30,969 nucleotides of DNA from Clostridia bacterium. GTDB taxonomy: Bacteria; Bacillota; Clostridia; Christensenellales; Aristaeellaceae. Within the stretch, counting starts at the first letter, position 1. Every line of letters begins with the position of its first letter. The stretch lies in NCBI GenBank assembly GCA_045599485.1, contig JAZRWA010000050.1:1-30969 (forward strand), given 5' to 3'. The translations under genes were made by a program, and so were the position numbers. The notes beneath the pieces are model-generated. The model worked only from the letters and a program-made list of their open reading frames with translations. It ran no database searches and was not told the DNA's origin. Shown piece after piece: positions 595 to 30,969 of this stretch.

Positions 595-1422
595 TTATAA
601 ATTCAGCAGCACCAGCGCGGCGGCAATGATCGCCATGGCGCCCCACTGGCGGCGGCTGAGACGCTCACGGAAGACAAGCGCGCCGATGAGTGATGTCACG
701 GCGATGACACCGGCGCTGAAGCAGGGATAGGCAATGACCGCGGGCAGGCTGTTCAGTGAAGCCAGCAGGAAACGGGTACTGAAGTAATTGGGCACGGCGA
801 TGAGGATGCCGTCGATCACATCCCATTTGCTGATGGGACTGCGGCGCATAAGGCATACAAGCGCGCACAGGACGAGCGCGGAACCGAAGGTGATCAGCAG
901 AAACAGGCTGTTCAGCTCGGTATTGCCCAGCTGCTCATGCACCTTGGACATACCGTCCGCCATACCGCCGCCCACAAGGAGCAGCAGCAGCCCGGGCAGA
1001 CTCTGCACGGTCGTTTTTTGCTTGGATTGACCGTTCATCAGCAATACAGCGGCAACAGTGAGCACAAGTCCCGCGCCGCGGGAAAGATTCAGCACATCGC
1101 CGAAAAAGATCAGCGACAACAACGTGGGGACCAGTACGCCCAGCTTCATGAACGTGGAAGAAAGGATAACGCCGTTGTGCGTAACGTTCCACTGCAGCAG
1201 CATGAAAGCCCCCAGATACAGCGCGCCGTTGATAAGCCCCAGCGAGAGTGTGATGCCAAAGCCATCCGCAGGCGTGAAGGAGGTGAACAGCGCCGCCAGC
1301 ACGGTGCACATCATGTAGTTGCACAGCAGCATCGAAACACGTCCCTTGCCGTGGCGTTCGCTCAGCCGCATCAGGACGGAGATGAGGGTGCTCATCAGCA
1401 CCGCAACGATCAAGTTCAGCAT
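595..1422 (-). CDS. EamA/DMT-family membrane transporter
   Basis: Polytopic hydrophobic ORF. I chose the internal ATG at 1422 (MLNLIVAVLMS...) because GGAGGG lies about 8 nt upstream. TAA stop at 595..597. Confidence 0.7.
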   Translation of the reverse strand: MLNLIVAVLMSTLISVLMRLSERHGKGRVSMLLCNYMMCTVLAALFTSFTPADGFGITLSLGLINGALYLGAFMLLQWNVTHNGVILSSTFMKLGVLVPTLLSLIFFGDVLNLSRGAGLVLTVAAVLLMNGQSKQKTTVQSLPGLLLLLVGGGMADGMSKVHEQLGNTELNSLFLLITFGSALVLCALVCLMRRSPISKWDVIDGILIAVPNYFSTRFLLASLNSLPAVIAYPCFSAGVIAVTSLIGALVFRERLSRRQWGAMAIIAAALVLLNL

Positions 1423-1595
1423 GTACGTAAGCCCTCCGAATAAAGTGCGTAAAAATAATAACACCTTTGCACAAATGATGCAACATCTGTACAAAGGTGC
1501 CATGGGCAGCGATCAACGCGGCCCTTTTCCGAAGGAAGAACGGGAGAACCCCCTTCTCCGCTTGGAAAGGGAGGTTCCCCCGAAAAGAGAAACGA

Positions 1596-3506
1596 TTATT
1601 CAGCAGCCTGCTCCAGGCACAGGGCGACAGCGTCCATGATGCGGCCGGAGGTCAGGGTGGCAGAGGAATAGATATCCACATCGGGGCTGTTGGCAGCCAC
1701 GATATCCTGCGGGATCTTTTCAAGAGCAGTAGCGGCGATGACCATGGTCTCGTGGGCTTCCACGATCTCCACATTGGCGATCTTGCCTTCGGCGACAACG
1801 ACCTTCACGGTCATCTTGCCTTCCTGACCGCTGACGGTGGCGGTGTATTCGCCGTCCTTCAGGGCCTTGCTCATGTCGAAGCGGGCTTCGGAATCCGCTT
1901 CGGGCTTGGCAAACATTTCAGCGGTGATGGTGGTGGACTTTTCCTTGGCCACATAACCGGTAGCGGGTTCGTTGTTCATGGCAGCGCGGGCGGCCAGACG
2001 ACCGAACACGATGGGGCCCATGACGCCGGTACCGCCGGAGACGAACTTGCCCCAGATGCCGCCCACGCACTCGCCGGCAGCATACAGACCGGGAATGGCT
2101 TCGCCGGCGGTATCCAGCACCTGACCATCCACGTTGACGGTGACACCGCCCAGAGTCATGACGACCAAGGCCTTCAGGGCGATGGCATAGTACTTATCGC
2201 CTTCGATCTTGTTGATGGCAGCGCAGTAGGAGGGATTGTTCTTGATGGCGTCCTCGGTGTATTCACGGCCGAACTCATCGGGTTCGCCGGATTCCACATG
2301 GGCGTTGTAATCGGCAATGGTAGCCTTCAGGTTTTCAGCGGGGATGCCCAGCTTGTCAGCCAGCTCTTCGATGGAATCGGCAGAGATGACGGCATCGCTG
2401 TAGGTCTTGCCGGGGGCATAGTAGAAGTTCCAGAACACAGAGGAGCCCAGCGCTTCGGTATCGGCAATGATCTTATCGGTGAAGATATCATACTGCACGG
2501 CGTTGGTCTGCTCTTCCAGGGTCACTTCGCGGGCAACCACGTCAGCGTCGTTTTCGTTGGCGAAGCGGAAGCCTTCCTGATTGACGGAGATGGCGCCGGC
2601 CTTCCACATGTAGGAGGAAGCGATCACGCCGATGCCGGGGGCCGTTTCATGACCCATGGGGAAGGTGGGAATGTAGGTCATCGCGGTGGGATCGATGTAG
2701 GCGCCGGCTTCCTGCATCATGTAGATGCCGTAGCCGTCAGAGGCGGTGGCGCCGCCCAGCACATAGTTGGCGCCGTTCTTGGCGAAGGCGGACATCATGG
2801 TGGGGTTGCCGGAGTAGCCGCCGGTGGCCATGATAACGGCCTTCTTGGCGGTGTAGCGCACGGTATCGCCGTTGGCGTCGGTAGCGACCACGGTCAGCAC
2901 CTGGCCCTGCTCATTGGCTTCCAGAGCGGTGGCAGTGGTGTTGAAATCGATGGTTACGCCGGCGTAGGGTTCGGTCGCCAGCACGGCATCCAGGATCTCA
3001 TGGGCAGCGCTCTTGTAGTTGGCGCGGTCCTTGGCAGAGGGCTTGTAGGTACGGGCGATGGTGTACAGCTGATGTTCGGGAGCGAACACGGCGTGCACAG
3101 AGTACTCGCTCAGGCCGTTGTCCCACAGCCACTGGATGGTGTCGGTGTCTTCTTCCACGTAGGCACGGATCAGCTCTTCGTTGCCCAGCTGGGCGCCGTT
3201 GGCCAGAATATCCTGCACGTAGCATTCCTTGGTATCCACGATGCCGTCGAGCTCCTGAATGATGGTCTCGGCGCCGGACATGGAACCGGAGGTGAAGTTG
3301 AGGGAGCCGCCGGTGCGGCCGGTCTTTTCAAGGATGATGACGCTTTCGGCACCGTCGTTGATGGCTTCGATGGCAGCAGCCATACCGCCGCCGCCGGCAC
3401 CGACGATGATGATGTCGGCGGTCTTGACGGCGTCTTCAGCCAGAACAACGCCGCAGCAGGACAGCAGCATCGTCACGGTCAGCAGGATCGCGAGAAACTT
3501 TTTCAT
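1596..3506 (-). CDS. exported FAD-dependent reductase (fumarate/urocanate-reductase-like flavoprotein) with a C-terminal FMN_bind domain; probable lipoprotein
   Basis: Signal peptide with a Cys (MKKFLAILLTVTMLLSCCG). Dinucleotide-binding motif IIIVGAGGGGMAAA. The C-terminal ~90 aa match FMN_bind, with a flavinylation-type motif DVDIYSSATLTSG. RBS GGGAGGAAAA. TAA stop. Confidence 0.85.
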   Translation of the reverse strand: MKKFLAILLTVTMLLSCCGVVLAEDAVKTADIIIVGAGGGGMAAAIEAINDGAESVIILEKTGRTGGSLNFTSGSMSGAETIIQELDGIVDTKECYVQDILANGAQLGNEELIRAYVEEDTDTIQWLWDNGLSEYSVHAVFAPEHQLYTIARTYKPSAKDRANYKSAAHEILDAVLATEPYAGVTIDFNTTATALEANEQGQVLTVVATDANGDTVRYTAKKAVIMATGGYSGNPTMMSAFAKNGANYVLGGATASDGYGIYMMQEAGAYIDPTAMTYIPTFPMGHETAPGIGVIASSYMWKAGAISVNQEGFRFANENDADVVAREVTLEEQTNAVQYDIFTDKIIADTEALGSSVFWNFYYAPGKTYSDAVISADSIEELADKLGIPAENLKATIADYNAHVESGEPDEFGREYTEDAIKNNPSYCAAINKIEGDKYYAIALKALVVMTLGGVTVNVDGQVLDTAGEAIPGLYAAGECVGGIWGKFVSGGTGVMGPIVFGRLAARAAMNNEPATGYVAKEKSTTITAEMFAKPEADSEARFDMSKALKDGEYTATVSGQEGKMTVKVVVAEGKIANVEIVEAHETMVIAATALEKIPQDIVAANSPDVDIYSSATLTSGRIMDAVALCLEQAAE

Positions 3507-3559
3507 GGGTTTTCCTCCCTGATATGGATTTGTCCCAACGGGACATTAATACAGATATA

Positions 3560-3588
3560 ATTATATCGATAATGTTTTTTCATGTCAA
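3560..3588 (-). promoter_or_regulatory. sigma-A-type promoter for the 1596..3506 reductase gene
   Basis: On the minus strand: TTGACA (3588..3583), 17-nt spacer, TATAAT (3565..3560). Both hexamers match consensus. Confidence 0.55.
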
Positions 3589-3614
3589 GTACAAACAAAA
3601 AACATTACAACCTG

Positions 3615-3643
3615 TTGACAATGGTCAGATTTCGTGATTTAAT
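3615..3643 (+). promoter_or_regulatory. sigma-A-type promoter for the T-box leader
   Basis: TTGACA at 3615..3620, 17-nt spacer containing an extended -10 TG at 3635..3636, and TTTAAT at 3638..3643. Confidence 0.45.
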
Positions 3644-3649
3644 AACATC

Positions 3650-3932
3650 ACAAACCGATGAAGAAGACGAGTACATCCCTTAAACAATCCCAAAGAGAGC
3701 CGCGGATGGTGAAATCGCGGCGGATGGTACCGGATGGAATGGACTTCCGAGGGCGACCCGAACGAACGCCGGTTCAAGTAGGCAAGCCGGAGATGATCTC
3801 TCCGTTAACAACAGTCGGCATATGAAAGTATGTCTGAGGCGGACGCCGCAAGGCGTCAAGCGGGGTGGCACCGCAGGAAGATTACAGTGATCGATCCTGT
3901 CCCGGCAAGAAATTGTCCGGGACAGGTTTTTT
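3650..3932 (+). promoter_or_regulatory. T-box leader riboswitch, tryptophan (UGG) specifier
   Basis: GA/K-turn-like GATGAAGAAGACGAGTA. AG bay AGAGAG with a distal GGTGAAA loop. Stem I helix CATCC/GGATG brackets a specifier loop with GAA-TGG-A (UGG at 3740..3742). Stem III is GACGCC-GCAA-GGCGTC. T-box core is AAGCGGGGTGGCACCGCAGG (about 3859..3878). The antiterminator 3' strand CCTGTCCC overlaps the terminator stem. Confidence 0.85.
3896..3932 (+). terminator. intrinsic terminator of the T-box leader
   Basis: CCTGTCCCGG ... CCGGGACAGG perfect 10-bp stem, followed by TTTTTT. Confidence 0.8.
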
Positions 3933-4066
3933 ATATGCAGGAGGTCAAAAAGATGAAACAGAAGCGATGGCGCTGCCGCGCCGAATGATGATTGCGTGAA
4001 GATCCCTCATTCCTCTTGAACTCAGCAAAACAAACCATACTATGAATGAAAGAAAGGAAAATCACC

Positions 4067-5089
4067 ATGAAAAAGTTTTTTGCTCTTCTCGTCGCCGTTA
4101 TGATGCTCCTCTCCGCCGCTTCCTTCTCCGTTGCCGAAGAAAAGACCTTTAAGATCGGTATCTGCAATTACGTTTCCGACGCCTCCCTGAATCAGATTGT
4201 GGAAAACATCGAAGCCCAGCTGGCGGACATCACCGCCGCGACGGGCGTCAAGTTCGAAGTGATGTATGATAACTGCGAAGCCAACAGCGCCACCTTGCAG
4301 CTGATCGTCACCAAGTTCATCAGCGCCGGTGTGGACCTGATGATCGGTGTTGCCACCCCCGTGGCCATCGTGATGCAGGGTGCTACAGAAGATAACCAGA
4401 TCCCCGTGGTGTTCGCCGCCGTGTCCGACCCGCTGGGCTGCGGTCTGGTCGAGACCCTTGCAGCACCCGGCGCCAACGTAACCGGCACCTCCGACTATCT
4501 GGATACCAACGCCGTCATGAACCTGATCTTTGCCGCCGATCCCGAGGCCGATATGATCGCCCTGCTGTATGATGTGGGTCAGGATTCCTCCGCCGCCGCC
4601 ATCGCCGACGCCAAGGCTTACCTGACCGCCAAGGGCGTGCAGTACAAGGAATACACCGGCACCAACCCCTCCGAGGTCCTGCAGGCCGCCCAGGCCATTG
4701 CCGCCGATCAGTGCGACGCCGTCTTCACCCCCTCTGACAACACCGTCATGAACGCCGAACTGAGCATTTACGAAGTGCTGGCCGAAGCCGGCATTCCCCA
4801 CTACACCGGTGCTGACTCCTTCGCCCTGAACGGCGCTTTCCTGGGCTACGGCGTGGACTACGCCAACCTGGGCCGCTGCACCGCCGACCTGGCCGCCGAG
4901 ATCCTGGTGGAAGGCAAGGCCCCCGCTGAAGTGCCCGTCATGACCTTCGACAACGGCACCGCCACCATCAATACCGAGATCTGCGCCGAGCTGGGCATCG
5001 ATTTTGACACCGTGTCCGCCGCTTTTGCTCCCTACTGCACCGCCATCAAGACCATCGTGACCGCCGAAAGCTTCGGCGACGTGCAGTAA
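4067..5089 (+). CDS. ABC transporter substrate-binding protein, PF04392 (ABC_sub_bind) family; candidate tryptophan-binding protein
   Basis: Signal peptide MKKFFALLVAVMMLLSAASFSVA. Family-typical blocks VDLMIGVATPVA and VVFAAVSDPLGCGLV...GANVTGTSD. ATG at 4067 is preceded by AAAGGAAAA. It lies directly downstream of the Trp T-box. TAA stop. Confidence 0.8.
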   Translation: MKKFFALLVAVMMLLSAASFSVAEEKTFKIGICNYVSDASLNQIVENIEAQLADITAATGVKFEVMYDNCEANSATLQLIVTKFISAGVDLMIGVATPVAIVMQGATEDNQIPVVFAAVSDPLGCGLVETLAAPGANVTGTSDYLDTNAVMNLIFAADPEADMIALLYDVGQDSSAAAIADAKAYLTAKGVQYKEYTGTNPSEVLQAAQAIAADQCDAVFTPSDNTVMNAELSIYEVLAEAGIPHYTGADSFALNGAFLGYGVDYANLGRCTADLAAEILVEGKAPAEVPVMTFDNGTATINTEICAELGIDFDTVSAAFAPYCTAIKTIVTAESFGDVQ

Positions 5090-5167
5090 CTTACACGCGC
5101 TTTTCAAGGGCGTCGGGTCACCGGCGCCCTTCCCTTTCTGTAAAGACCCTGAAAAGGAGCCCGAACC

Positions 5168-6103
5168 ATGACGATCTCCGCGATCCTCTCTTTGGGACAG
5201 ACCTCGCTGGAGCTGGGGCTGATCGAAGCCCTGACCGTGTTGGCGCTGTTCCTCAGCTATTCCATGCTGAATGTATGTGACCTGTCGACCGATGGCTGCT
5301 TTACGCTGGGCGCCGCGGTGGGTGCCGTGGTGGCGGTGGCTGGGCATCCCTATCTGTCACTGCCCGCCGCCATGCTGGCCGGTGTGGTCAGCGGCTTTGT
5401 GACGGCGCTGCTGCAGACGCGCATGGGCATCAACTCCCTGCTCGCCGGCATCATCGTCAATACGGCGCTTTTTTCCATCAACATCGCGGTGATGGGCGGC
5501 GCCTCACTGGTCAACCTGAACAGGGCGGATACGGTGTTTTCCATTCTGAACAAGCTGACCAAGGGCACGGTATGGCATGACTATTACAAGCTGCTCATCG
5601 CAGGCGCGGCGGTCGTACTGGTGATCGTTTTCCTTCGTTTCTTTTTGCAGACCAAGCTGGGCCTTTCCATCCGCGCCACAGGTGACAACCCCGACATGGT
5701 GCGTTCCAGCTCCATCAATCCCGCGTTTACCACCATGGTAGGTCTGTGCATCTCCAACTCCTTCACGGCACTGAGCGGTTGCCTGCTGGCCCAGTACAAC
5801 AAAATGGCCAACATCGATATCGGCAGCGGCATTGTGACCATCGCGCTGGCCAGCCTGCTGATGGGCGGCGTCTTCCTGGGCCGCGGCGGCATCGTCAAGC
5901 GTGCCATCGGCGCGGTCTTGGGTTCGGTGCTCTTTCAGCTGGTCTACGCCATTGCCCTGCGCTTCAATATGCCCACCTTCATGCTCAAGGCCGTATCGGC
6001 GGTCATTATCATTCTGGCCATCGGCGGTCCCTACATGAAAAAGCAGCTTCCGCTGATGGTGCGCCGTCTGAACGCCATGAAGGGAGGCCGGAACCATGGC
6101 TGA
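5168..6103 (+). CDS. ABC transporter permease (BPD_transp_2-type)
   Basis: Polytopic membrane ORF with RBS AAAGGAG. It overlaps the downstream ATPase gene by 8 nt. TGA stop. Confidence 0.8.
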   Translation: MTISAILSLGQTSLELGLIEALTVLALFLSYSMLNVCDLSTDGCFTLGAAVGAVVAVAGHPYLSLPAAMLAGVVSGFVTALLQTRMGINSLLAGIIVNTALFSINIAVMGGASLVNLNRADTVFSILNKLTKGTVWHDYYKLLIAGAAVVLVIVFLRFFLQTKLGLSIRATGDNPDMVRSSSINPAFTTMVGLCISNSFTALSGCLLAQYNKMANIDIGSGIVTIALASLLMGGVFLGRGGIVKRAIGAVLGSVLFQLVYAIALRFNMPTFMLKAVSAVIIILAIGGPYMKKQLPLMVRRLNAMKGGRNHG

Positions 6104-6899
6104 CAGTCCCATCCTTACCTTAAAAGGCGTATGCAAGACCTTCAACCCCGGTACGGTCAATGCCAAACAGGTGTTTGACGGGCTCGACCTGGAAGTGAAC
6201 AAGGGCGATTTCATCACCATCATCGGCGCCAACGGCGCGGGAAAGTCAACGCTGTTCAACGCCATCTGCGGCAGCTTTTATGTGGATAAGGGCCGCATTG
6301 AGCTGGACGGCAGGGACATCACCTACATGCCCGATCATCAGCGTTCCAGAACGATCGGCAGGCTCTTTCAGGATCCCATGCGCGGCTCCGCCCCCGGCAT
6401 GACCATTGAGGAAAATATGGCGCTGGCGGCCGGCCGCGGCGGCTGGCTCAGCAGTGTCAGCCGCGCGGATAAGGAACTGTTCAGGCAGCGCCTGATGCTG
6501 CTGGACATGGGGCTGGAAAACCGCATGAAGCAGCCGGTCGGCCTGCTCAGCGGCGGTCAACGTCAGGCGCTGACGCTGCTGATGGCCACCTTCAACCCGC
6601 CAAAGCTTTTGCTGCTGGATGAGCACACCGCCGCCCTGGACCCCGGTACTGCCGAAAAGGTGCTGAACATCACCCGTCAGGTGGTGGAGGAAAACAACCT
6701 GACCTGCATGATGATCACCCACAACATGCAAAGCGCGCTGGAGCTGGGCACGCGTACGCTGATGATGCACAACGGACACATCATTCTGGATGTCCGCGGT
6801 GAGGAAAGAGCCCGCATGACGGTGGAAGACCTGCTGGAGCGTTTCCGCGAAAACGCCGGCCGCGCGCTGGACAATGACCGCATGCTGCTGAACACCTGA
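6096..6899 (+). CDS. ABC transporter ATP-binding protein
   Basis: Walker A GANGAGKST, signature LSGGQRQ, Walker B LLLLDEHTAALD. TGA stop. Confidence 0.9.
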   Translation: MADSPILTLKGVCKTFNPGTVNAKQVFDGLDLEVNKGDFITIIGANGAGKSTLFNAICGSFYVDKGRIELDGRDITYMPDHQRSRTIGRLFQDPMRGSAPGMTIEENMALAAGRGGWLSSVSRADKELFRQRLMLLDMGLENRMKQPVGLLSGGQRQALTLLMATFNPPKLLLLDEHTAALDPGTAEKVLNITRQVVEENNLTCMMITHNMQSALELGTRTLMMHNGHIILDVRGEERARMTVEDLLERFRENAGRALDNDRMLLNT

Positions 6900-6970
6900 G
6901 CAAAAAATGTTTGCGACTCCGATAAAAATATGATATGATAATAGAACCAAAAACAAGGAGGACTTTTCTT

Positions 6971-7663
6971 ATGAAGAAAGCAGTATCTATGGTACTCGCC
7001 CTCGTTCTGATGCTGTCCCTGTGCGCCGCGGCTTCCGCTGCCGGCAAGCTGGTGGTGAGCAGCGAGAACATGGTGGTTGTAGAATCCTACAGCTATTACT
7101 ACGCCTACGTCTTCGCTGAAGTGACCAACACCGGTGACAAGCCCGTGCAGTACAACGCCTGCCTGATGGAAGTGCTGGATGAAAACGGTGAAGTGCTGGG
7201 CAACCGTGACTACGGCAACTGCTATCCCAAGTATCTGAATCCCGGTGAATCGGGCTACCTGGTCGTCTACGACTCCACCGATGACAAGAGCGTTGTTCCC
7301 GCGGATTACACCCTGACCGTGACCGGCAAGTCTGCTTCCGAAAACCCCATCAAGCGTCTGCCCGCCACTGTGCAGGTGGTCGATGTTCCCCGCGGCTACG
7401 GCAACTATGTGGACAAGGTGGCCATCATCACCGTGACCAATGATACCGACGCGGCTGTGCTGGATTACACCGTGGTGTATATCGCCCGTGATGCCGAAGG
7501 CAACATCATCTGCGTGACCGATGGTTACACCGGCAACAGCGGCATCCTGGCCGGCGGCAGCATCCTCAACAAGCTGGATCTCCGCTATGAAAACACCCTG
7601 AGCGCCGCGATGGAATCCGGCGTCGAATTCACCATCGAAGCCATCGCCTTCATCAATAACTGA
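6971..7663 (+). CDS. hypothetical exported protein with two similar beta-rich halves
   Basis: ATG at 6971 after AAGGAGGA. Signal peptide MKKAVSMVLALVLMLSLCAAASAAG. I do not recognise a family. TGA stop. Confidence 0.6.
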   Translation: MKKAVSMVLALVLMLSLCAAASAAGKLVVSSENMVVVESYSYYYAYVFAEVTNTGDKPVQYNACLMEVLDENGEVLGNRDYGNCYPKYLNPGESGYLVVYDSTDDKSVVPADYTLTVTGKSASENPIKRLPATVQVVDVPRGYGNYVDKVAIITVTNDTDAAVLDYTVVYIARDAEGNIICVTDGYTGNSGILAGGSILNKLDLRYENTLSAAMESGVEFTIEAIAFINN

Positions 7664-7829: not shown

Positions 7830-8576
7830 TTACTTGACGATGGTGATGGCGTTGATCTGCTTCATACCCAGATCAAACAGTTCTTCGGTGGGCATGTACA
7901 CGTCCTCGCTGTCGCCGACCACGTTGATGGAGATCAGCACGCTGCTGTTGCTGAAGCGGCAGGGCACATACATGACCGCGCTCTGATAATACTTGACAGC
8001 GCCCGTCTCGGTATCGGTGTTGCTGTAGGCGTAGTTGAACCAGTAACCGGTGCCGCTGGGAGCAGTGAAGCTCTCGATCTCGGAAACGGTGCCGTTTTCG
8101 CCCGCGTAGTTCAGCATGGTGGGACGAACATATTCAGCCATCTCCTTGGGGCTGCGGGCCGCCACGGGAGAAACATAGATCATATCGATGGGGCTGTTTT
8201 CATCGGTGGGGATGAATGTAAAATCGGTCTTGATGTTTGCACCGTTCACGCTGGTGGTCAGCGGTCCGTTGTATTTGAAGCCTTCGATCGCCTCAACATC
8301 AGCCAGATGATAATACTTGCTGTTCTTGCCCGGGGTGCGCTCGGCGATGAGCCAGTTATCCGCCTTGCCCACGACCGCGCCGTTGCGGACCACCAGGGAT
8401 CCGTCATCATAGAAACCGTAATAGCCCACGACCAGCAGTACGATCACAGCCACAAGGGCCATGCCCGTCACCATCAGGGTGCGGCGGGTACGCTCGGTCT
8501 GGTCCTTCCACCATTCAGTAAAGGTGCGCTCCCTGGGTTTTACATACTTCGGCTTACGGCGATAATGCTTTGCCAT
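7830..8576 (-). CDS. hypothetical single-pass membrane-anchored protein
   Basis: Basic N-terminus (MAKHYRRKPKYVKPRERT), one TM segment (MVTGMALVAVIVLLVVGYY), then a soluble domain. TAA stop. Confidence 0.6.
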   Translation of the reverse strand: MAKHYRRKPKYVKPRERTFTEWWKDQTERTRRTLMVTGMALVAVIVLLVVGYYGFYDDGSLVVRNGAVVGKADNWLIAERTPGKNSKYYHLADVEAIEGFKYNGPLTTSVNGANIKTDFTFIPTDENSPIDMIYVSPVAARSPKEMAEYVRPTMLNYAGENGTVSEIESFTAPSGTGYWFNYAYSNTDTETGAVKYYQSAVMYVPCRFSNSSVLISINVVGDSEDVYMPTEELFDLGMKQINAITIVK

Positions 8577-8825: not shown

Positions 8826-8872
8826 AGGGAAAATCAGTGATTTCAAGAAATTTCTGATTTTCCCTTATTTTA
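8826..8872 (+). terminator. intrinsic terminator after the tRNA gene
   Basis: 12-bp stem AGGGAAAATCAG ... CTGATTTTCCCT (8826..8865), followed by TATTTTAT. Confidence 0.6.
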
Positions 8873-8888
8873 TCGTCTTTTTTGCAGA

Positions 8889-9634: not shown

Positions 9635-9682
9635 AAATAAAAAGTATAATGCTGTCTTTGTGTCATGTCAAGGAGGAATCCC

Positions 9683-22070: not shown

Positions 22071-22099
22071 TTGGTGTTCCTCCCATTATCGATGTTTCG

Positions 22100-23116: not shown

Positions 23117-23151
23117 TGTTTTATCTCCGTAATTTTTTTCGAATGAAGGGC

Positions 23152-24150
23152 TCAAAGAATGCCGCAGGCCTGCAGCGTAGCACGCTGCAAGGCGATCTCA
23201 TAATCATATGTGAAAGGATTCTCTTTTTCTCCGCGAATATAGGCTGCAAAGTCCTTGACCTGCTCGTCATAGCGGCCAACCTGTGTTTTGAACCCCGTCA
23301 AATATTGCTTCGAATCATGATAGGTAGGCGGGTTGTCTTTGCTGAAAGACACCGAAATCATGGAAGGGCCTTCCAACGGCTTGACTTCCACTGTGCCTTT
23401 CGTGCCGCAAATGACCAGTTGGCGTCTGCCAAAGCCATTGACTTCACGAGAGGTCGTGCGTACAGTGCAGCTGGCATTGGGATAAGTGACCACTGCCAAC
23501 GCGTTATCCTGCAACGCCACATCCTGCGGAATCGTTCGTTTGATAAAAGGAACGACCGATTCGGGATTGGGACCCAGGATTTGAAAGATCATGTCAAACA
23601 GGTGACAGCCGAAGATATACATGGTTCCGCATTTGAACGACTTGCTGAGCCATTGGCGGTACGGTTCGCCATGAGCCGTGCTCATCTGTGTATCGATTTC
23701 GAAAATCTCCCCCAGTGCACCGCTCTTTGCAATGGCAATGGCCTCCTGAATGACCGGGTTATAGCGGTACATATATCCCATCTGAACAACCAGATGCTTT
23801 TCGCGTGCCGTGTTCATGACCTCAGCAAACTCATTGATATCTTCGCCACCGGGTTTATCCATATGAATATGATAGCCCTTCCGAAGACATTTCAAAGCTG
23901 CCTGATCCAGGTCTGGCACGTCCGTTTCCACAGAAATAGCCTCCAGATCCGGGATGGCAAACAATTCCTATTCACTCAATCTGGGGAGTCCAATATAACC
24001 TGGCAGATTACCGCGCTTTTCCCACCAGGATTCATCGGGTTCGCAAACACCTACCACATCAAAAATTTCCGGGAAGCGACGAAAGCATTTCATTTTTTCT
24101 TCGCCATGGTTGTGCCCCAGTCCGTACTGCGCGATTTTGATCTTATTCAT
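23152..24150 (-). CDS. Gfo/Idh/MocA-family oxidoreductase with one in-frame TAG
   Basis: ATG at 24150 after GGAGGA. The N-terminal Rossmann segment MNKIKIAQYGLGHNHG...VVGVCEPDE is joined in frame across TAG 23968..23970 (LSE-TAG-ELFAIPDLEAISVETDV) to the remainder of the protein. TGA stop. Confidence 0.8.
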
Positions 24151-24244
24151 ATTGCATCCTCCTGCCTGCGATTTGCCCATCTTGAGCTGTTTTCCAAGTC
24201 AGTATAACCCTCGTCACCGTTCCGGGACAATTTGCTTTGCGTCA

Positions 24245-26458
24245 TCAGGCATTTGTCTTTCGGCTTTGACGATACTCACTGGGAGTCATTCCCTCCTGAA
24301 GTTTGAATTTGCGTAAAAAAGATGGAACATCATTATAACCAACAGCATGGACAAGCGTTTGAACAGTATCTGATCCGGAAATAAGCCTCCGTTTGAACTC
24401 TTCCATGCGAAGGTATGCAATATACTGAACAAAAAGCATGCCTACATCCTGCCGCAGGATGTCATTGATCTGAGACGGGCGCATCTATATCTGTTGAGAA
24501 ACAATGTGAATGGACATTTCATAATCGGTAAAATGGCTATGAATGTATTCCATAACACGGCGCTTGTTAGAAAACTGTCGTTCCTCCTCTAACTCCGATT
24601 TCTTCATACAGGCAAATTGAATCATTTCACAGCCATGTAGAATCAGAGTATCTGTCGTAGGTGATTGAATCATTTTTTCAATCATATCATCCGGGATCGC
24701 AATTCCTTCTTCTTTCATTTGCATAACCAAGGATTGCACCAAGGCATTCACCCTGAACTGAAACATCAGCACAGAAGCAGCAGAGGAAGAAAGAGTGACG
24801 ATTAATTCCTTCCAATATACAAACGCCTGATCTGTCTGAATTCTTTGAATGGATTCCATCAGAAGCGAGCATATCTGAGTTTCCTCCCATCCATTGCTTT
24901 TAGGCGGAGTCATAAAGCATATAGCTTCCGTTCCCGGTCTGCGCAGGCGAATTGCAGCAGCTGCATGATTGAAGCTTTCGGACAAAGCAAGCGGGTCGTC
25001 AATTACAGATCCCACACCGATCACTGCACGATGATATCCTCTTTGACGTATGGTACCGAGCCATTTTTCTGCCAATGATTTCATTGTCTCGTGTTTCTAT
25101 CCCGCCGCATCGCTAAAATTAACTATAACAGCCAATGCATGTTCATTGGGCAGTTCTCCCGGCAGCATACGGATTCCTTTGGGTTCCTGCAAAAAAATCG
25201 CTGATACATTGGATACTGTCATCTCCGCCTTTTCACCGGGAAGTATGTAAAACACGCAGAAATGGACATGTGGAAAATGAACGTCAGAACAGGTGAGCAA
25301 ATAGTCAAGCGCATCTTTGGACTTGATCTTTCCGAAAACCAATTGCTGTACCAGGTGGCTTGCCGCATATAGATGAATCTGCCCCAACTTCAACGTCAGG
25401 ATTTCATTCTCTGTTGTTAACTGTTCATGGTACATTTTTAGAAACGCAAGCTCATTTTCATTTGTTAACAGTTTTCGTCCGCCGGAGAGCTATGTAACAT
25501 ACTTGCGGATTGGAAGAGCATTCGTAAAACTGATGAAGAGCGACAACACCATAAGAAGACCCGCAATTGCAGCAAACAGGATGCTTTGGGATGTGCGAAC
25601 GCTACGGATACTTTCAAAGAAGTTTTCCTATGTATCCAGCAGACAGAAACTGAGTGACCGAACACTGTTCAGAATTCTCAGCATTTCATAGCGTGTCCCG
25701 CTCTCCGCAAAAGAGAGCACACCTGTTCCGGTATGTTTAAGTATTACATTTTGATTGACCGGACTTTCTCCGGATGCATAAAACAGTCCCATAGCTTTGG
25801 TCGGATAGATGAGGACCGTACCGTTTGTTTCTCCCAAATAACTGCTGAACAAATCCTGGAGATATTCAGACGGCATCATATACAAAATCACTATGCTGCT
25901 CTCATGGTCTGGCGTAATAGAAAAAGGCACCAGATACACCAATTGATCACGTAAAGTCGCTTCCTGCGTTTTCAATCGAAGCAACGTGGAAGAGCGGCAA
26001 CTCATGATGGTCTTGTACAACTGACTCTGATCCGGATCATATTCTTTGGATAGATATTGCTGAAAAGCAGAATAGCTCTCACGTCCTTCACAACTATAAA
26101 TACTTTTATCGCCCCGGATATACACATAAATGCCGACTCGGTTATCAATCTTGGTTTTCATGGATTCCAGGATTGCTTTCAAAGCTGATTCATAAGCTAT
26201 ATTCACGATACGATTTTCACTCATCGTGAAGCACTGGCTGAGGGTATAATTACTTTCCAACATGAAATCAAAACGGTCAAGGAGTGTATCAAATTCGCTT
26301 ACTGCACTTTTAAACGAATCCAGCCGGGATGATGCTGTATACTGGATTGAAGACTGAACATTGCCGTTCACGATGATTGCGATAAAAATGAGCACAAAAA
26401 TAGAAGCCAAAAATGTAATCGTCAAATTTTGCAGGAGCATACTGCCTTTTTGTTTCAT
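24245..26458 (-). CDS. membrane-anchored AraC-family sensor/transcription regulator with four in-frame TAG codons
   Basis: A single frame runs from ATG 26458 (RBS GGGAGA) to TGA 24245..24247. It encodes TM1 (LTITFLASIFVLIFIAIIV), an extracytoplasmic domain, TM2 (ILFAAIAGLLMVLSLFISF, in the segment between two TAGs), a cytoplasmic region, and a C-terminal AraC HTH (GYNDVPSFLRKFKLQEGMTPSEYR). The TAGs are at 25628..25630, 25490..25492, 25097..25099 and 24485..24487. Confidence 0.75.
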
Positions 26459-26622
26459 TTTCTTTTTTCTCCCGACAGATATTAAATCCATTTTGTTCAT
26501 TATACCAACAGGTTTCTTTCTTTTCAACGGACCATTCAAGCTGTTTGTGCAAAACAAATCGAAAATGACGGAAAACAAATCAAAACTTACAAAACAGCAA
26601 AGGCAGTAATTTGCACAACAAA

Positions 26623-26651
26623 TTGTTATTTGCGTCTCATCTTCCTATAAT
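26623..26651 (+). promoter_or_regulatory. candidate sigma-A promoter of the sugar ABC operon
   Basis: TTGTTA at 26623..26628, 17-nt spacer, TATAAT at 26646..26651. A small AACAA-A-TTGTT palindrome overlaps the -35 element. Confidence 0.4.
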
Positions 26652-26734
26652 GGAATCAGAAAACCAACGAGCGCAATGCGCTACAGTTCTCACCTCCAAT
26701 AAAAAAAGATGAAACCAAGGAGCAATGGATCTAT

Positions 26735-27682
26735 ATGACAAATATCAGGCAGACCTTACCTCCGGCAAAACGAAGCTTCTGGCAAAGGCTGAAAACCGAC
26801 TTTCGGAAACACTGGATGGTATATGCAATGCTTCTGCCGATTCTCGCCTATTACTTGATTTTCAAGTACGGATCCATGGGATATCTTGCAATTGCTTTTG
26901 AGGATTTCAAACCGGTCAAAGGCATACTGGGAAGTAAATGGGTCGGATTCAAGAACTTCATCAAATTTTTCAGCATGGATACCAGTTCAAGGCTTATTCG
27001 CAACACGTTCTTGCTGAATTTTTATGATATCTTGTTCAGTTTTCCCGCCCCCATCCTGCTGGCTTTGATGATCAATTAGCTAACGCTGAAGCGGACAAAG
27101 AAGCTAATCCAAACTGTAAGCTATGTCCCCCATTTTATTTCCATGGTCGTCATTTGCGGCATGCTCAGAGAATTCTGCTCATCTGATGGTCTATTCAACC
27201 AGGTTCGCATGATGTTGGGACTTGAAGGCTACAACCTGCTGACAAATCCGCGCCTGTATCGTACGATTCATATCGGCAGCGGTATTTGGCAAAGTGTTGG
27301 CTGGAGCAGCATCATCTATCTGGCCACGCTGTCCGGTGTAGATACCCAGCTGTACGAAGCAGCTTATATTGACGGTGCTAACAAAATGCAGCGTATCATC
27401 CATGTTACGCTTCCGGCACTGGTGCCCATCATTACAGTTCAGTTCATCATGAGAATCGGACATATCATGTCAGTTGGCCATGAAAAGATTATTCTGTTGT
27501 ATAACGAGATGATTTTCGAAACAGCCGATGTAATCTCCACATATCTGTATCGTTACGCATTGCTGACCGGTAAATACAGTCTGGGTACCGCTGTTGGTCT
27601 GTTTAACTCTGTTATCAATATCATCATTCTCGTGATTGTCAACAGAACCTTCTCCAAGTTGACCGAGAACAGTCTGTGGTAA
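26735..27682 (+). CDS. LplB-type (COG4209-like) sugar ABC transporter permease with one in-frame TAG
   Basis: Track ORFs 26735..27079 and 27143..27682 share a frame. Across TAG 27077..27079 the sequence reads PAPILLALMIN-TAG-LTLKRTKKLIQTVSYVPHFISMVVICGML, a contiguous conserved block of this permease family. TAA stop. Confidence 0.8.
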
Positions 27683-27699
27683 AGGAGGACGTAGATACA

Positions 27700-28584
27700 A
27701 TGGCGATTGTAGAAAGCAAGAACCGCGGTGAAAAAATCTTCAATGCAGTTAATCTCAGCGTTCTCCTCCTGTTGACACTCGTTTTCTTCTATCCATTGTG
27801 GCATTGTTTGATGGCATCCTTCAGTGATCCTGCCAAGTTAATGCGGCATGTGGGCGGCCTTCTGTGGCCGGATGGTTTCAGTCTGAAAGGTTATGAAGCA
27901 GTACTAAAAAATCGTAACATCGGCATCGGTTACATGAACACCCTGTTCTATGTAGGCGTCGGCACCAGTCTTTCTATGCTTCTGACGATCATCGGCGCAT
28001 ATGCGTTGACCAGACAGGGCTTGATGCTGAAAAAGCCAATTATGGTGCTGATCGTGCTGACCATGTATCTTGGCGGCGGAATGATTCCGGATTTCCTAAT
28101 TATCCGTGATCTTGGTCTGTATGACAGCAGATGGTCTGTGATTCTCCTGACATCGATTACTACCTATAATTTGATGGTCATGCGCACCGCATTTTTGCAG
28201 ATTCCTCATTCTTTGGAAGAATCGGCCATGTTAGACGGTGCAAATGACTTCGTGATTCTGTTCAGAATCCTGCTGCCTGTTACAAAAGCTACCATCGCGG
28301 TTGTAACTCTCTTCTATGCAGTCGGACGTTGGAACGCTTGGTTTAACGCATCCATTTTCCTTCGCGATCGTGAAAAATATCCGCTGCAGCTGTTCCTGCG
28401 TGAAATTCTGATTTCGAGCACCGTGACCGGCGATGAAGGCTCTGCAGAAGACGGCGTCTACTATCTGTCTGAGTTGCTTAAGTATTGCACCATCATCGTA
28501 TCTACCGTTCCGATCCTGTGCATTTATCCATTTGTCCAGAAATATTTTGTTACCGGTGTAATGTTGGGCTCTGTGAAAGGATGA
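27700..28584 (+). CDS. LplC-type sugar ABC transporter permease
   Basis: Six-TM BPD_transp_1-type ORF containing the EESAMLDGAND EAA-loop motif. ATG at 27700 is downstream of AGGAGG. An earlier GTG at 27676 is a less likely start. TGA stop. Confidence 0.8.
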   Translation: MAIVESKNRGEKIFNAVNLSVLLLLTLVFFYPLWHCLMASFSDPAKLMRHVGGLLWPDGFSLKGYEAVLKNRNIGIGYMNTLFYVGVGTSLSMLLTIIGAYALTRQGLMLKKPIMVLIVLTMYLGGGMIPDFLIIRDLGLYDSRWSVILLTSITTYNLMVMRTAFLQIPHSLEESAMLDGANDFVILFRILLPVTKATIAVVTLFYAVGRWNAWFNASIFLRDREKYPLQLFLREILISSTVTGDEGSAEDGVYYLSELLKYCTIIVSTVPILCIYPFVQKYFVTGVMLGSVKG

Positions 28585-28589: not shown

Positions 28590-29339
28590 ATGAGGTTATC
28601 AAAAATTGCCCTAGTCAGCGGTGGCGGCGGTTCCATCGGCAGAGCAATCTGTGAAGTCCTTGCCGAAGACGGCTATACCGTCGCGGTAGCAGATATTTCA
28701 AAGGAAAATGCCGAAAAAACAGCAAAAGCCATCCGGGAAAAAGGCGGAAATGCCCTGAGTCTGGAGATGAATGTTCTGGAGGGGCAATCTGTAGAGCAAA
28801 CATTTACAGAACTGACAGCAAAAAAAGGTTCACTGGATTTGCTCGTGAATGTTGCCGGAGGCAGCGCAAGAAGCCGCTGCAAGCCCCTGTCTGAGCAGGA
28901 TATCTCCGTCATTGACGAAATGCTGGATATCAATCTCAGAGGATCTATGCTTTGCATGCGATCCGCCGCTCGTCAAATGCGAAAGCAGCAAAGCGGTGTC
29001 ATCATCAATATCGCATCTGTCGTCGCTCTTCAAGGAAGGTCACGTTTAACCGACTATGCAGCGGCAAAGGGCGGCATTATCTCAGTCACCAGATCGTTAG
29101 CTTTGGAAATGGGCAAATATCATGTCCGTGTTAACAGTGTTTCACCCGGATCCGTTCCCCGTCCCGGAGATGACACCACCGGGTGGGAGAACACAAATAT
29201 TCTTCACGCTGTCTGCTCCGTTTATGATATTGCCTATGCTGTATCTTTCCTCGCATCCGATAAAGCTTCGTTCATCACAGGCCAGAATCTCTGCGTCGAT
29301 GGCGGGCGATCACTCGGACTGATGGGTGAAAAAGAATGA
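28590..29339 (+). CDS. short-chain dehydrogenase/reductase (SDR)
   Basis: SGGGGSIG cofactor motif, NVAG, and catalytic YAAAKGG (YxxxK). TGA stop. Confidence 0.85.
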   Translation: MRLSKIALVSGGGGSIGRAICEVLAEDGYTVAVADISKENAEKTAKAIREKGGNALSLEMNVLEGQSVEQTFTELTAKKGSLDLLVNVAGGSARSRCKPLSEQDISVIDEMLDINLRGSMLCMRSAARQMRKQQSGVIINIASVVALQGRSRLTDYAAAKGGIISVTRSLALEMGKYHVRVNSVSPGSVPRPGDDTTGWENTNILHAVCSVYDIAYAVSFLASDKASFITGQNLCVDGGRSLGLMGEKE

Positions 29340-29385
29340 TTGAGCTCAAACCGGAAAGGTTTGAAATATAGAAAGGAGATTCCCC

Positions 29386-30969
29386 ATGAAGAAAGTCATT
29401 TCTCTGTTCCTCGCAATCGCATTGCTGCTCAGCTGCAGTTCTGCACTCGCCGTTGAAAAGCTTGAAGGGCTTTATGTCGGTGATCACATTGCCGACGGAC
29501 AGTACCCGGTTGACGGCGATGTAAAACTCACCTACTGGATGCCGATCAACAAGAGTGCGGTTGCTTTCATCAGTAATTATGATGAAAATCCGGCCTATGA
29601 CACCATGCAGAAGACCACCGGTGTGGATGTCACCTTCATTCATCCCGCTGTCGGCGAAGCAAAACAGGATTTCCAACTGCTGACCGTGTCCGGTAAGCTC
29701 CCGGATGTGCTGCAGCTTGACGCTGCCACCTGGTATGACGGCGGACTGGAAGCCATGTACGAGGATGAACTGATTATCGATCTGACTCCCTATCTGGAAG
29801 AGTATGCTCCTCAGTATCTGAAGGTTATCAACGACAATGACGATGTCAAACGTCAGGTATACCTCGGAGAAGATGGTCAGGTGTTGGGTTTCTACCGCAT
29901 CAGCTACGGTGATGTGCTTCCCTGGTGCCGTATTGATATCCGCAAGGATTGGCTTGACGAAGCCGGCATGACTGAACCGAAGACCATTGCCGATTATGAG
30001 GCATGGTTTGAGTGGGTGCTGGCCAACAAGCCCGGTGTCGCTCCTTTCTATATGGACTTCACCAACGCGGATCAGCTCAACAATCTGCTGGGTGCCTTTG
30101 ATCTTCTGCCCACTTGGTACGTGACTGAAGACGGTTCCGTGCACTACTATGCCAATGAAGCTGCTTTCAAGGATTTCCTGGCGTTGATGAACAGTTGGTA
30201 TGAGAAGGGCTACATTTCCCGCGACTTTGTTTCTCTGACCGGCACCGAAGCTGATGCCCTTTTCGATTCCGATCGTCTTGCCAGTTACGCCGGCAGCAAC
30301 AACTGCTATGCTCGTACACTGAATCTCCCCCTGAGTATCTCTGTAGCTCAGTATATGCGTAAGGAAGAGGATTCCAAACTGCATAACCAGATTGCCGACA
30401 ATCCCGTTGGCGGTTATATCTCCGTTGTCACCACCGCCTGCTCCAATCCCGAAGCTGCCGTTGCCATGCTGAACTATGCATACACTTTCGAAGGTTCCAT
30501 CGTATACAACTGGGGCACTGAGGGTATTACCTATGAGTGGGGCGAGGATGGCCGTCCTCATTACACTGATTACGTTATCAAGAACCCCGATGGCAAAACT
30601 ACCGGCAACATCTCCTACTGCGACCGTATCCACCTGGGCAGCAAGCTGACCTGGTCCGATAACGTTACCGGCCCCGGCATGACCACCAACCCCGGTCAGA
30701 AGGCATGGCGCGAATTGTGGCTGGATGACGCCAACGTGGATAGTGCTTACCGTCTGCCGCCCATCTCCATGACCGCTGATGAAACCAGCGACCGCAACGA
30801 GATCATGGCCGAAGTCAACACAGCTGTGAACGAGTTCATGCTCAAGTGCATTACCGGCGTTGAGTCTATTGACAACTTTGATGCTTATGTCCAGCGCATC
30901 AACAAAATGGGTCTGAATGACGCCATTTCCATCACTCAGGACGCATACAACCGCTACATGGGTCAGTAA
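29386..30969 (+). CDS. LplA-type extracellular solute-binding lipoprotein of the sugar ABC transporter
   Basis: RBS AAAGGAG. Lipoprotein signal MKKVISLFLAIALLLSCSS. About 527 aa, which is typical of the large family-1 polysaccharide/oligosaccharide binding proteins. TAA stop at the window end. Confidence 0.8.
   Translation: MKKVISLFLAIALLLSCSSALAVEKLEGLYVGDHIADGQYPVDGDVKLTYWMPINKSAVAFISNYDENPAYDTMQKTTGVDVTFIHPAVGEAKQDFQLLTVSGKLPDVLQLDAATWYDGGLEAMYEDELIIDLTPYLEEYAPQYLKVINDNDDVKRQVYLGEDGQVLGFYRISYGDVLPWCRIDIRKDWLDEAGMTEPKTIADYEAWFEWVLANKPGVAPFYMDFTNADQLNNLLGAFDLLPTWYVTEDGSVHYYANEAAFKDFLALMNSWYEKGYISRDFVSLTGTEADALFDSDRLASYAGSNNCYARTLNLPLSISVAQYMRKEEDSKLHNQIADNPVGGYISVVTTACSNPEAAVAMLNYAYTFEGSIVYNWGTEGITYEWGEDGRPHYTDYVIKNPDGKTTGNISYCDRIHLGSKLTWSDNVTGPGMTTNPGQKAWRELWLDDANVDSAYRLPPISMTADETSDRNEIMAEVNTAVNEFMLKCITGVESIDNFDAYVQRINKMGLNDAISITQDAYNRYMGQ

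Follow-up and report, generated by a model that had tools for sequence, protein, structure and literature searches.

UAG is probably a sense codon in this Clostridia bacterium, most likely specifying glutamate and read by a dedicated tRNA(CUA) of tRNA-Glu origin, with termination confined to UAA and UGA. The window, the whole 30,969-nucleotide stretch of DNA that was analysed (contig JAZRWA010000050.1; GC 0.53), yielded 24 rebuilt gene models with complete 3' ends, amounting to 9347 sense codons. Fourteen of these genes terminate in TAA, ten in TGA and none in TAG. TAG is found in frame at 13 positions spread over 8 of the 24 genes (1.4 per 1000 codons), and no in-frame TAA or TGA occurs among the 9347 codons. 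The preliminary description of this DNA had reported the absence of TAG from 24 terminators and the presence of 13 internal TAGs; the rebuilt models reproduced its lists of TAA and TGA genes exactly, and the recount gave the same number of internal sites.

Pfam matches support 22 of the 24 genes, the two others being hypothetical open reading frames without a Pfam match (6935–7663, plus strand, stop TGA at 7661–7663; and 7830–8576, minus strand, stop TAA at 7830–7832). TAA also ends the genes for an EamA transporter (595–1503, minus strand; stop at 595–597), a FAD_binding_2 and FMN_bind reductase (1596–3506, minus; stop at 1596–1598), a PF04392 ABC substrate-binding protein (4046–5089, plus; stop at 5087–5089), an OmpR-type response regulator (8889–9584, minus; stop at 8889–8891), a protein with three FMN_bind domains (11766–12686, plus), GalE (14501–15508, minus; stop at 14501–14503), a Zn-dependent dehydrogenase (22100–23155, minus) and an LplA-type solute-binding protein (29386–30969, plus; stop at 30967–30969). 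TGA ends those for an ABC permease (5168–6103, plus; stop at 6101–6103), an ABC ATPase (6096–6899, plus; stop at 6897–6899), a Tat-signal flavoprotein (12764–14341, plus), GalK (16995–18164, minus; stop at 16995–16997), an LplC-type permease (27676–28584, plus) and an SDR oxidoreductase (28590–29339, plus). The remaining genes carry in-frame TAG; five of them end in TAA and three in TGA.

Two genes contain several TAGs. The sensor histidine kinase gene (9665–11524, plus strand, stop TAA) has three, at 10457–10459 (codon 265), 10760–10762 (codon 366) and 11093–11095 (codon 477), with HisKA and HATPase_c domains downstream of them. The AraC-family sensor/regulator gene (24245–26500, minus, stop TGA at 24245–24247) has four, at 25628–25630 (codon 291), 25490–25492 (codon 337), 25097–25099 (codon 468) and 24485–24487 (codon 672); an HTH_18 domain follows the last of these, and homologs of 741–746 amino acids align over the whole length. 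Deep homolog searches with these two proteins returned few close homologs. In the quinone oxidoreductase gene qor (18230–19204, minus, stop TAA), the TAG (18632–18634, codon 191) lies within the ADH_zinc_N domain; in the Gfo/Idh/MocA oxidoreductase gene (23152–24150, minus, stop TGA at 23152–23154) it lies inside the Rossmann domain (23968–23970, codon 61); and in the LplB-type ABC permease gene (26735–27682, plus, stop TAA) within BPD_transp_1 (27077–27079, codon 115). The amidohydrolase gene (19221–20288, minus, stop TAA) has its TAG at codon 19 (20232–20234), upstream of the Amidohydro domains, so that at this one site domain evidence exists only downstream; Pfam domains or homology run on past the 12 other TAGs. 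Only two TAGs are near a C-terminus, codon 444 of 497 in galT (15667–15669; gene 15505–16998, minus, stop TGA at 15505–15507) and codon 554 of 586 in the GH2 glycosidase gene (20409–20411; gene 20310–22070, minus, stop TAA). GalT aligns through to the C-terminus with three relatives of 64–68% identity, and GH2 codon 554 is spanned by 120 homologs, nearly all of full length (586 amino acids in the closest). The count of terminators is therefore not circular, as the sequence that follows these two TAGs is homologous to full-length relatives.

Among the public gene calls of the source contig are TAG-truncated fragments, one of them a 443-amino-acid GalT; the deposited sequence thus contains the TAGs and was annotated on the assumption of the standard code. 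Such fragments, and the fact that a single contig represents the organism, would fit TAGs that are not decoded at all, arising in pseudogenes or through sequencing or assembly errors. We consider this very improbable and rejected it. All 13 internal stops are TAG (p ~6e-7 under random nonsense mutation), there are no frameshifts, conservation over the full length reaches 80–88% with relatives, and a matching tRNA(CUA) is present; moreover, at three sites two base changes would be needed to derive TAG from the GAA of relatives. The base 3' of the TAG showed no significant pattern across the 13 sites (G six times, C four, A three, T never).

The tRNA gene with anticodon CUA, which reads UAG, was identified by ARAGORN at 8748–8823 on the plus strand; it scores 55.5 bits against the Rfam tRNA model (E 1.5e-9) and folds as a cloverleaf. 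It has a tRNA-Glu-type body with a G1.U72 pair, G73, the anticodon loop CUCUAAA and an encoded CCA. Its D-arm (TCGTCTAGnGGnCCAGGAC) is identical to that of a gut tRNA-Glu(CUC), and alignment showed a Glu-type D-loop and a 4-nt variable loop common to tRNA(CUA) and E. coli gltT, unlike the E. coli tRNA-Gln species glnV and glnW. U11-A24, U13.G22, the enlarged D-loop and the 4-nt variable loop lacking position 47 also occur in both gltT and the gut tRNA-Glu(CUC); these features of the D-arm, D-loop and variable loop make up the GluRS identity set of E. coli. Of 13 annotated phage matches that tRNA(CUA) gave in blastn, 10 were tRNA-Glu. Aligned with glnV, glnW and the Gln-like Sup1 of phage Phass-1, it showed no tRNA-Gln features. 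Judged by its sequence, the body of tRNA(CUA) is of tRNA-Glu type, neither tRNA-Gln nor tRNA-Pyl. One hallmark of tRNA-Glu, the YUC anticodon with C36, is absent, the CUA anticodon having A36 instead. In E. coli, GluRS uses C36 as an identity element, and CUA-anticodon tRNAs are readily mischarged by GlnRS; with A36 in place of C36, efficient charging with glutamate is not guaranteed.

Directly 3' of the tRNA, a hairpin with a U-rich tail (8826–8874, plus strand) folds with −19.7 kcal/mol (z = −4.67), and none of 200 shuffled sequences folded equally well. This element is a probable intrinsic terminator as far as folding predicts, in which case the tRNA would form its own transcription unit. 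A simple terminator scanner missed the hairpin. A sigma-70 promoter scan gave no plus-strand match upstream of the tRNA. The tRNA(CUA) pattern had zero matches among 2.9 million viral contigs and a single one in metagenome contigs, on an unrelated 1.6-kb environmental contig (L023), so that there is no lineage-level replication of this tRNA.

Use of TAG as a terminator was examined in related loci. In 15 related loci of Clostridia and Erysipelotrichaceae, 28 of 194 open reading frames (14%) end in TAG, and in the six closest loci 6 of 80 (7.5%). Two loci, L031 and L033, share the gene order of the window and use the standard code; the protein identities of this pair to the window are 80% for LplA, 82% for SDR, 88% for LplC, 80% for LplB, 86% and 84% for Gfo, 85% for qor and 81% for GH2. 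They contain no in-frame TAG, have sense codons at the TAG sites of the window, and terminate 2 of 14 genes with TAG. The Gfo ortholog in L031 and the AraC ortholog in L033 terminate with TAG at the position that TGA occupies in the window. As relatives at 80–88% protein identity still stop at UAG, the change of code would be of recent origin. L034, a contig of another sample with 90.7% DNA identity, terminates 10 genes in TAA or TGA, and its sole apparent TAG stop is located between two open reading frames of the same frame. This candidate TAG-split gene had no Pfam or NCBIfam match, and with a chance of about 15% that the open continuation is accidental it is suggestive only. A GalK scan of species-representative genomes found only relatives of at most 65% identity, none with a CUA tRNA. 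The relatives derive from gut or faecal samples. We also considered the relatives identified through GH2 (L016–L022, L024, L025 and L028) as a TAG-free clade, in which TAG stops had numbered 0 of 46. Genes flanking these GH2 genes are only 35–63% identical, and one GH2 gene adjoins a recombinase-like gene; GH2-based relatives are poor proxies for phylogeny, and the idea was dropped on this ground. L024 and L025 do terminate genes with TAG.

From the TAG-stop rates of related loci, the probability of finding 0 of 24 TAG stops by chance is about 0.02–0.15. The absence of TAG terminators fits reassignment, as had been proposed from the sequence at the outset, but the weight first given to it was overstated: TAG is only a minority stop (7–14%) in related loci, and 0 of 24 taken alone is modest evidence. 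The same range of probabilities is compatible with an ambiguous intermediate, or strong natural suppressor, in which RF1 is kept, RF1 and tRNA(CUA) both act on UAG so that TAG-containing genes yield full-length along with truncated protein, and chance accounts in part for the missing TAG stops. The rarity of TAG in coding sequence and the TAG stops still used by close relatives, indicative of a recent change, also suit such a state. Nevertheless it appears unlikely. Four readthroughs would be required in AraC and three in the histidine kinase, and inefficient readthrough of several TAGs per gene would leave almost no full-length protein. One third of the genes are affected, galT included; TAG terminators are absent both from the 24 genes of the window and from 10 other genes in L034 (91% identical); and at two gene ends the window has TGA where an ortholog stops with TAG. 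The preference of the preliminary description for reassignment over leaky suppression is supported, by the tRNA(CUA) in the window, which its remarks on the stops had not mentioned, the genes with multiple TAGs, the homology past 12 of 13 TAGs and the stops of syntenic relatives, more than by the terminator count. UAG as pyrrolysine was also rejected, being hardly credible: its one argument is the ARAGORN label 'tRNA-Pyl', which is applied to any CUA anticodon. The tRNA is a canonical cloverleaf that scores well on the general tRNA model and has a Glu-type D-arm, neither pyl genes nor methylamine methyltransferases were found within the window, and the residues aligned to TAG are E or Q, not K.

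Which amino acid is inserted was approached through homologs, since new TAGs should mostly arise by synonymous change and the residue of neighbours should therefore reflect the meaning of TAG. Six TAG sites have a nearest ortholog of 72% identity or more, and its residue is Glu at five of them and Gln at one. GAA (E) is present in the syntenic relatives at qor codon 191 (85% L031 ortholog), Gfo codon 61 (L031, 86%, and L033, 84%) and LplB codon 115 (80% L031 ortholog). E also occupies the qor position in three of three PDB quinone oxidoreductases, and codons 265 and 366 of the histidine kinase in the 72% homolog P0126. In the LplB column, 123 of 148 family representatives have E and 5 have Q. 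A crude log10 likelihood ratio of E over Q, computed before L031 was included, was +2.1 to +2.6. Other columns point to glutamine, the meaning that TAG has in gut phages with 'code 15'. At GH2 codon 554, where the relatives have CAG, homologs of at least 73% identity have Q in seven of eight cases and K in one (Q 61, M 37 and E 17 in the whole column); the histidine kinase codon 366 column has Q 8 versus E 2; and AraC codons 337 and 672 are Q in a 52% homolog, codon 672 being, with the two preceding sites, one of the columns that lean to Gln. At GalT codon 444 the three relatives have Q, E and V. Glutamine could be inserted by either of two routes, GlnRS recognising the CUA tRNA via U35, G73 and the weak 1-72 pair, or a non-discriminating GluRS charging glutamate that GatCAB then amidates. 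G73 and the weak G1.U72 pair of tRNA(CUA) suit the former, the code-15 phage Phass-1 has a CUA tRNA whose 5' half is similarly Glu-like, and E. coli amber suppressors made from tRNA-Glu insert largely Gln. Even so, we regard glutamine as an improbable meaning of TAG: across the 13 sites of the window Q is clear only at GH2 codon 554, with E at most of the high-identity sites; the LplB column is 83% E versus 3% Q; and the tRNA body is free of any tRNA-Gln feature. The Glu-type tRNA body, the five of six ortholog sites and the LplB column together suggest that TAG most likely encodes glutamate.

We propose that UAG has ceased to be a terminator in this bacterium and is read as an amino acid. The tRNA(CUA), transcribed from 8748–8823, would derive from tRNA-Glu, in the simplest case from a tRNA-Glu(CUC) by a C36 to A change. 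GluRS would charge it by way of the D-arm and variable loop, whose Glu-type architecture has been kept, and in the A site of the ribosome the tRNA would pair with UAG and insert, most likely, glutamate. Only UAA and UGA, both readable by RF2, would terminate translation, TGA or TAA having taken over from ancestral TAG terminators. The window itself contains no release-factor gene. Charging with glutamate, loss or inactivation of RF1 and the genome-wide validity of the code are the parts of this scheme that we infer.

Several known systems resemble the proposed one. In code-15 gut phages (TAG to Gln; crAss-like phages, Lak phages and the 'Caudoviricetes code 15 clade', Phass-1 for example), a genome-encoded tRNA(CUA) likewise makes UAG a sense codon, gene calling with the standard code splits genes, and the habitat is also the gut; one Phass-1 suppressor shares the similar Glu-like 5' half. 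In contrast to these phages, the recoded genes of the window are cellular (a gal operon, ABC transporters and a two-component system) on a contig with no phage genes, the tRNA is fully of Glu type, and the residues at aligned positions point to Glu rather than Gln. Reading of UAG as glutamate is known from eukaryotic nuclear codes, those of peritrich ciliates (NCBI table 30) and Blastocrithidia (table 31), which show the same change of codon meaning as favoured here. Those eukaryotes terminate through eRF1 and have reassigned UAA too, whereas UAA is the commonest stop of the window (14 of 24). Pyrrolysine, in Methanosarcinaceae and some Desulfitobacterium and Acetohalobium, was the sole natural sense reading of UAG previously known in prokaryotic chromosomes and also relies on a tRNA(CUA), but that system has the atypical tRNA-Pyl, PylS and PylBCD, and its UAG codons are concentrated in methylamine methyltransferases, features that the window does not share.

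For bacteria, two papers (PMC13462651, PMC8629427) list changes of UGA only. The codes concerned are code 4, with UGA to Trp in Mycoplasmatales, insect endosymbionts and Eggerthellaceae MAGs, and code 25, with UGA to Gly in Absconditabacteria/Gracilibacteria. As in these codes, a mutated or duplicated cognate tRNA would have taken over a stop codon of a bacterial chromosome, leaving the other two stops to terminate. The situation is otherwise a mirror image, RF2 being lost there and loss of RF1 being expected here; the codon (UAG, not UGA), the release factor and the amino acid all differ, and the window is not AT-rich, unlike most code-4 genomes, which are small and AT-rich. The proposed end state, with no RF1, a CUA tRNA reading UAG and termination at UAA and UGA, matches in mechanism that of RF1-deleted, recoded E. 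coli and of laboratory amber suppressors (Mukai et al. 2010, PMC3001078; for genomically recoded organisms PMC11903333, PMC6207430). Those strains are engineered; the present case would be natural, with TAG already in one third of the genes.

In the literature to August 2026 we found no report of UAG to Glu in any natural bacterium; the stop-codon reassignments described there for bacteria involve UGA only, and UAG has a sense meaning only for pyrrolysine and in phages. On balance, we lean slightly towards this uncultured, Clostridia/Oscillospiraceae-like gut organism being the first natural bacterium in which UAG means glutamate, through a tRNA-Glu-derived tRNA(CUA), with RF1 dispensable or lost and the change recent. 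If true, nature would have arrived at a counterpart of the recoded E. coli strains that lack RF1, and a new translation table would be justified. Genomes of this kind would be misjudged by standard annotation and completeness tools, as the public calls split or truncate 8 of the 24 window genes, and the natural tRNA(CUA)/synthetase pair would be of interest to genetic-code engineering. Because relatives that share the gene order but use the standard code are available, this very recent case would be usable for testing codon-capture against ambiguous-intermediate models. It also bears on the conflict of codes between phage and host, incoming TAG-terminated genes being read through. If a bacterium of free-living type and normal GC content has captured UAG for a standard amino acid, the amber codon too would prove evolvable in cells.

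Gene models were rebuilt from the sequence and then checked with Pfam, yielding 24 genes with a complete 3' end and 9347 sense codons in all. Fourteen of these genes end in TAA and ten in TGA, gene for gene as listed in the preliminary description, and none in TAG. The 13 internal TAGs reported there were recovered as in-frame codons in eight of the 24 genes: three in the sensor histidine kinase (HK), four in the AraC-type regulator and one each in GalT, the quinone oxidoreductase (qor), the amidohydrolase, GH2, the Gfo/Idh/MocA oxidoreductase (Gfo) and the ABC permease LplB. No in-frame TAA or TGA was found inside any of the 24 genes. Internal stops are therefore all TAG (13/13; p ~6e-7 under random nonsense mutation), which is far stronger evidence than the terminator count (0/24). 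The same simple ORF caller gave TAG as the terminator for 28 of 194 ORFs (14%) across 15 related Clostridia/Erysipelotrichaceae loci; for the six closest the figure was 6 of 80 (7.5%), and in two syntenic relatives, the standard-code contigs L031 and L033, TAG closes 2 of 14 genes. Because TAG ends only 7.5–14% of the relatives' ORFs, the probability of 0/24 is about 0.02–0.15. The direction of the earlier inference from missing TAG stops is supported, but the count is weaker than was implied: it is suggestive of reassignment, short of decisive.

As judged from the alignments, the terminator count is free of circularity, since just two of the TAGs are close to a C-terminus. In GalT the TAG is codon 444 of 497, and three relatives (64–68% identity) align to the last residues of the protein. 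In GH2 it is codon 554 of 586; among the 120 matches listed, homologs align across the TAG and the following 32 residues and are nearly all full length, the closest being 85% identical and likewise 586 aa long. For most remaining TAGs a Pfam domain spans or follows the site, and the alignment with PDB quinone oxidoreductases runs through the qor TAG; the sole support for the amidohydrolase TAG (codon 19) is a domain starting downstream. In-frame UAG is found at conserved positions in a third of the window genes. Since the yield of full-length protein drops as a power of suppression efficiency, the genes with three (HK) and four (AraC) TAGs argue for efficient decoding. The preference for reassignment over leaky suppression, already expressed from the sequence alone, is thus supported by evidence independent of, and stronger than, the terminator count. 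TAG is used at 1.4 per 1000 codons in the window genes, compared with 39 for GAA, 22 for GAG and 23 for CAG, and this rarity fits a recent change. GC content drops from about 0.60 to 0.42 across positions 12000–28000; every TAG falls in a gene with a GC content of at most 0.57, and the low-GC AraC gene (0.42) by itself holds 4 of the 13.

Among species-representative genomes, GalK identity was no higher than 65% (Oscillospiraceae/Clostridia MAGs). Contig L031 (16 kb, from another sample) is collinear in gene order with the window's right half, with protein identities of 80% for the solute-binding protein LplA, 82% for the SDR oxidoreductase, 88% for the permease LplC, 80% for LplB, 86% for Gfo, 85% for qor, 81% for GH2 and 46% for AraC. 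None of these L031 genes contains an in-frame TAG. At the window TAG sites the L031 codon is GAA (Glu) in qor, Gfo and LplB and CAG (Gln) in GH2; its four AraC sites read CAG, GAG, GAC and GGG. L033 Gfo (84% identical to that of the window) also has GAA. The closest standard-code relatives stop at TAG in two genes where the window uses TGA: Gfo ends in ...LQACGII-TAG in L031 and ...LQACGIL-TGA in the window, at equal length (332 aa), and the L033 AraC ortholog ends in TAG, so that two gene ends of ancestral type correspond to TGA in the window. The recoding is confined to a narrow, recent lineage. TAG also serves as a true terminator in two other GH2-bearing contigs, L024 and L025.

A contig from yet another sample (L034; ENA ERZ27247129 k141_859705) is 90.7% identical in DNA to window positions 602–6976, and of its 11 called genes, 10 stop at TAA or TGA. 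The TAG-ending gene (132..974) shares one frame with the next (981..1217). Taken together (L034:132-1217), the two would encode a single membrane protein that contains a Pro/Thr linker and ends in a Cys-rich module, and for which no family was matched. This TAG may be that of a further split gene, suggestive of readthrough in a second organism. The closest GH2 (85%) adjoins a tyrosine-recombinase-like ORF (L028:2126-3223). Its neighbours vary between contigs, so this GH2 seems to move horizontally and to say little about relatedness. A solute-binding protein gene that is intact in one GH2-bearing contig (L016:3742-5311; 519 aa) is split into 75 + 411 aa in another (L017:3095-4654); the upstream piece ends in TGA, so that the split reflects a frameshift or nonsense change and has nothing to do with TAG.

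The only tRNA found in the window by ARAGORN has the anticodon CUA (8748–8823, + strand). It scores 55.5 bits against the Rfam general tRNA model (gathering score 29), folds as a cloverleaf and has an encoded CCA end. Directly 3' of it come a strong hairpin (-19.7 kcal/mol, z = -4.7; none of 200 shuffled sequences was equally stable) and a U-rich tract, which together resemble a dedicated terminator. The ARAGORN label 'tRNA-Pyl' was rejected: it is set by the anticodon only, the tRNA is canonical and the window contains no pyl or methyltransferase genes. In a blastn search of 50,697 phage records, 10 of 13 annotated matches were tRNA-Glu, and a 'tRNA-Sup-CTA' of the code-15 phage Phass-1 was matched as well; the best unannotated match, from a human faecal sample, was a tRNA-Glu(CUC) with an identical D-arm. 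The window tRNA was aligned with annotated E. coli tRNA genes and this gut tRNA-Glu. It shares with E. coli gltT (tRNA-Glu) and the gut tRNA the D-arm TCGTCTAGnGGnCCAGGAC, a D-loop 2 bases longer than that of tRNA-Gln, and a 4-nt variable loop; none of the tRNA-Gln hallmarks (5' UGGGG, GCCAAGCGG-TAAGGC, 5-nt variable loop) was present in the alignment. The structural identity set of E. coli GluRS consists of U11-A24, U13.G22 and a missing position 47, all present in the window tRNA, which differs from a normal tRNA-Glu by its anticodon (A36 for C36), A38 and a G1.U72 wobble pair. A tRNA pattern scan of 241 million metagenome records gave a single match, a further Glu-type tRNA that has the anticodon CUA but is unrelated to the first (L023:1476-1551; JGI Ga0114945_10105293, 1590 bp), on a GC-rich (0.59) environmental contig where another partial tRNA adjoins it. 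Two tRNA-Sup-CTA genes, of separate ancestries, are present in Phass-1 (L026:1422-1590; OQ749652.1, 'Caudoviricetes code 15 clade'): Sup1 is Gln-like (5' UGGGG), and Sup2 is Glu-like in its 5' half, has A1-U72/G73 and carries an insertion of 17 nt in its variable region.

After reassignment, new TAGs should arise mostly by synonymous change, and the residue at the same site in close relatives should then indicate what TAG means. The nearest orthologs have Glu at LplB 115 (80–81% identity), Gfo 61 (86% and 84%), qor 191 (85%), HK 265 and HK 366 (72% each), and Gln at GH2 554 (85%). Residues are Q, E and V at GalT 444 (68%, 65% and 64%); in AraC (52% and 46%) they are K and Q at 291, Q and E at 337, D and D at 468, and Q and G at 672. 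In the columns at the TAG sites, E occupies 123 of 148 LplB family representatives (Q, 5) and 3 of 3 PDB homologs of qor; for GH2 the 120 matches listed include Q 61, M 37 and E 17. A crude column-frequency log10 likelihood ratio (E/Q), calculated without the L031/L033 data, is +2.1 to +2.6. UAG may instead be read as Gln, as 13 TAG sites is a small sample and CUA-anticodon tRNAs are open to mischarging by GlnRS or to amidation by GatCAB; against this, Glu outnumbers Gln five to one at sites with orthologs at least 72% identical, in agreement with the Glu-type body of the tRNA. UAG is probably read as Glu.

Other features of the window were noted. An FMN_bind protein (11841–12676) is built of a 285-nt unit repeated 2.9 times in tandem; the DNA copies are only 86% matched and the three ~95-aa protein repeats almost identical, which suggests selection for identical modules. 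The 539-nt gap 5' of the PF04392/ABC transporter operon (3507–4045) contains no convincing ORF and no Rfam family at threshold. The 4-nt overlaps of galK/galT/galE (15505–15508 and 16995–16998), in which the stops are TGA, suggest translational coupling.

In the proposed mechanism, tRNA(CUA) would be charged with Glu by GluRS, and RF1 would be lost or disabled, leaving RF2 alone to terminate at UAA and UGA, as in RF1-deleted recoded E. coli. Bacterial UGA codes and eukaryotic UAG-to-Glu codes are near analogues, as is the pyrrolysine system, to which the window does not belong. Nor does it belong with the code-15 gut phages, also close, as its tRNA is of another type than tRNA-Gln and Glu is the residue favoured at the TAG sites. 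Our literature search found UAG sense decoding only in code-15 phages, ciliates, pyrrolysine users and engineered E. coli. According to the Codetta screen of >250,000 genomes, every known bacterial code change reassigns UGA (PMC8629427), and in a report of a new UGA-to-Trp lineage the stop-codon reassignments described for bacteria are of UGA only (Microbial Genomics, August 2026; PMC13462651). Public protein fragments of the source contig are cut at the TAGs (GH2 553 aa, GalT 443, qor 190, LplB 114, C-terminal parts of Gfo 270 and HK 129), meaning that the standard code was assumed in the gene calls; all but that of GH2 are singletons. The recoding appears to have been overlooked in the public record so far. 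Extrapolated from this 31-kb window, the UAG-as-sense code would hold throughout the genome; if so, it would be the first natural case in bacteria of UAG being reassigned to a standard amino acid.
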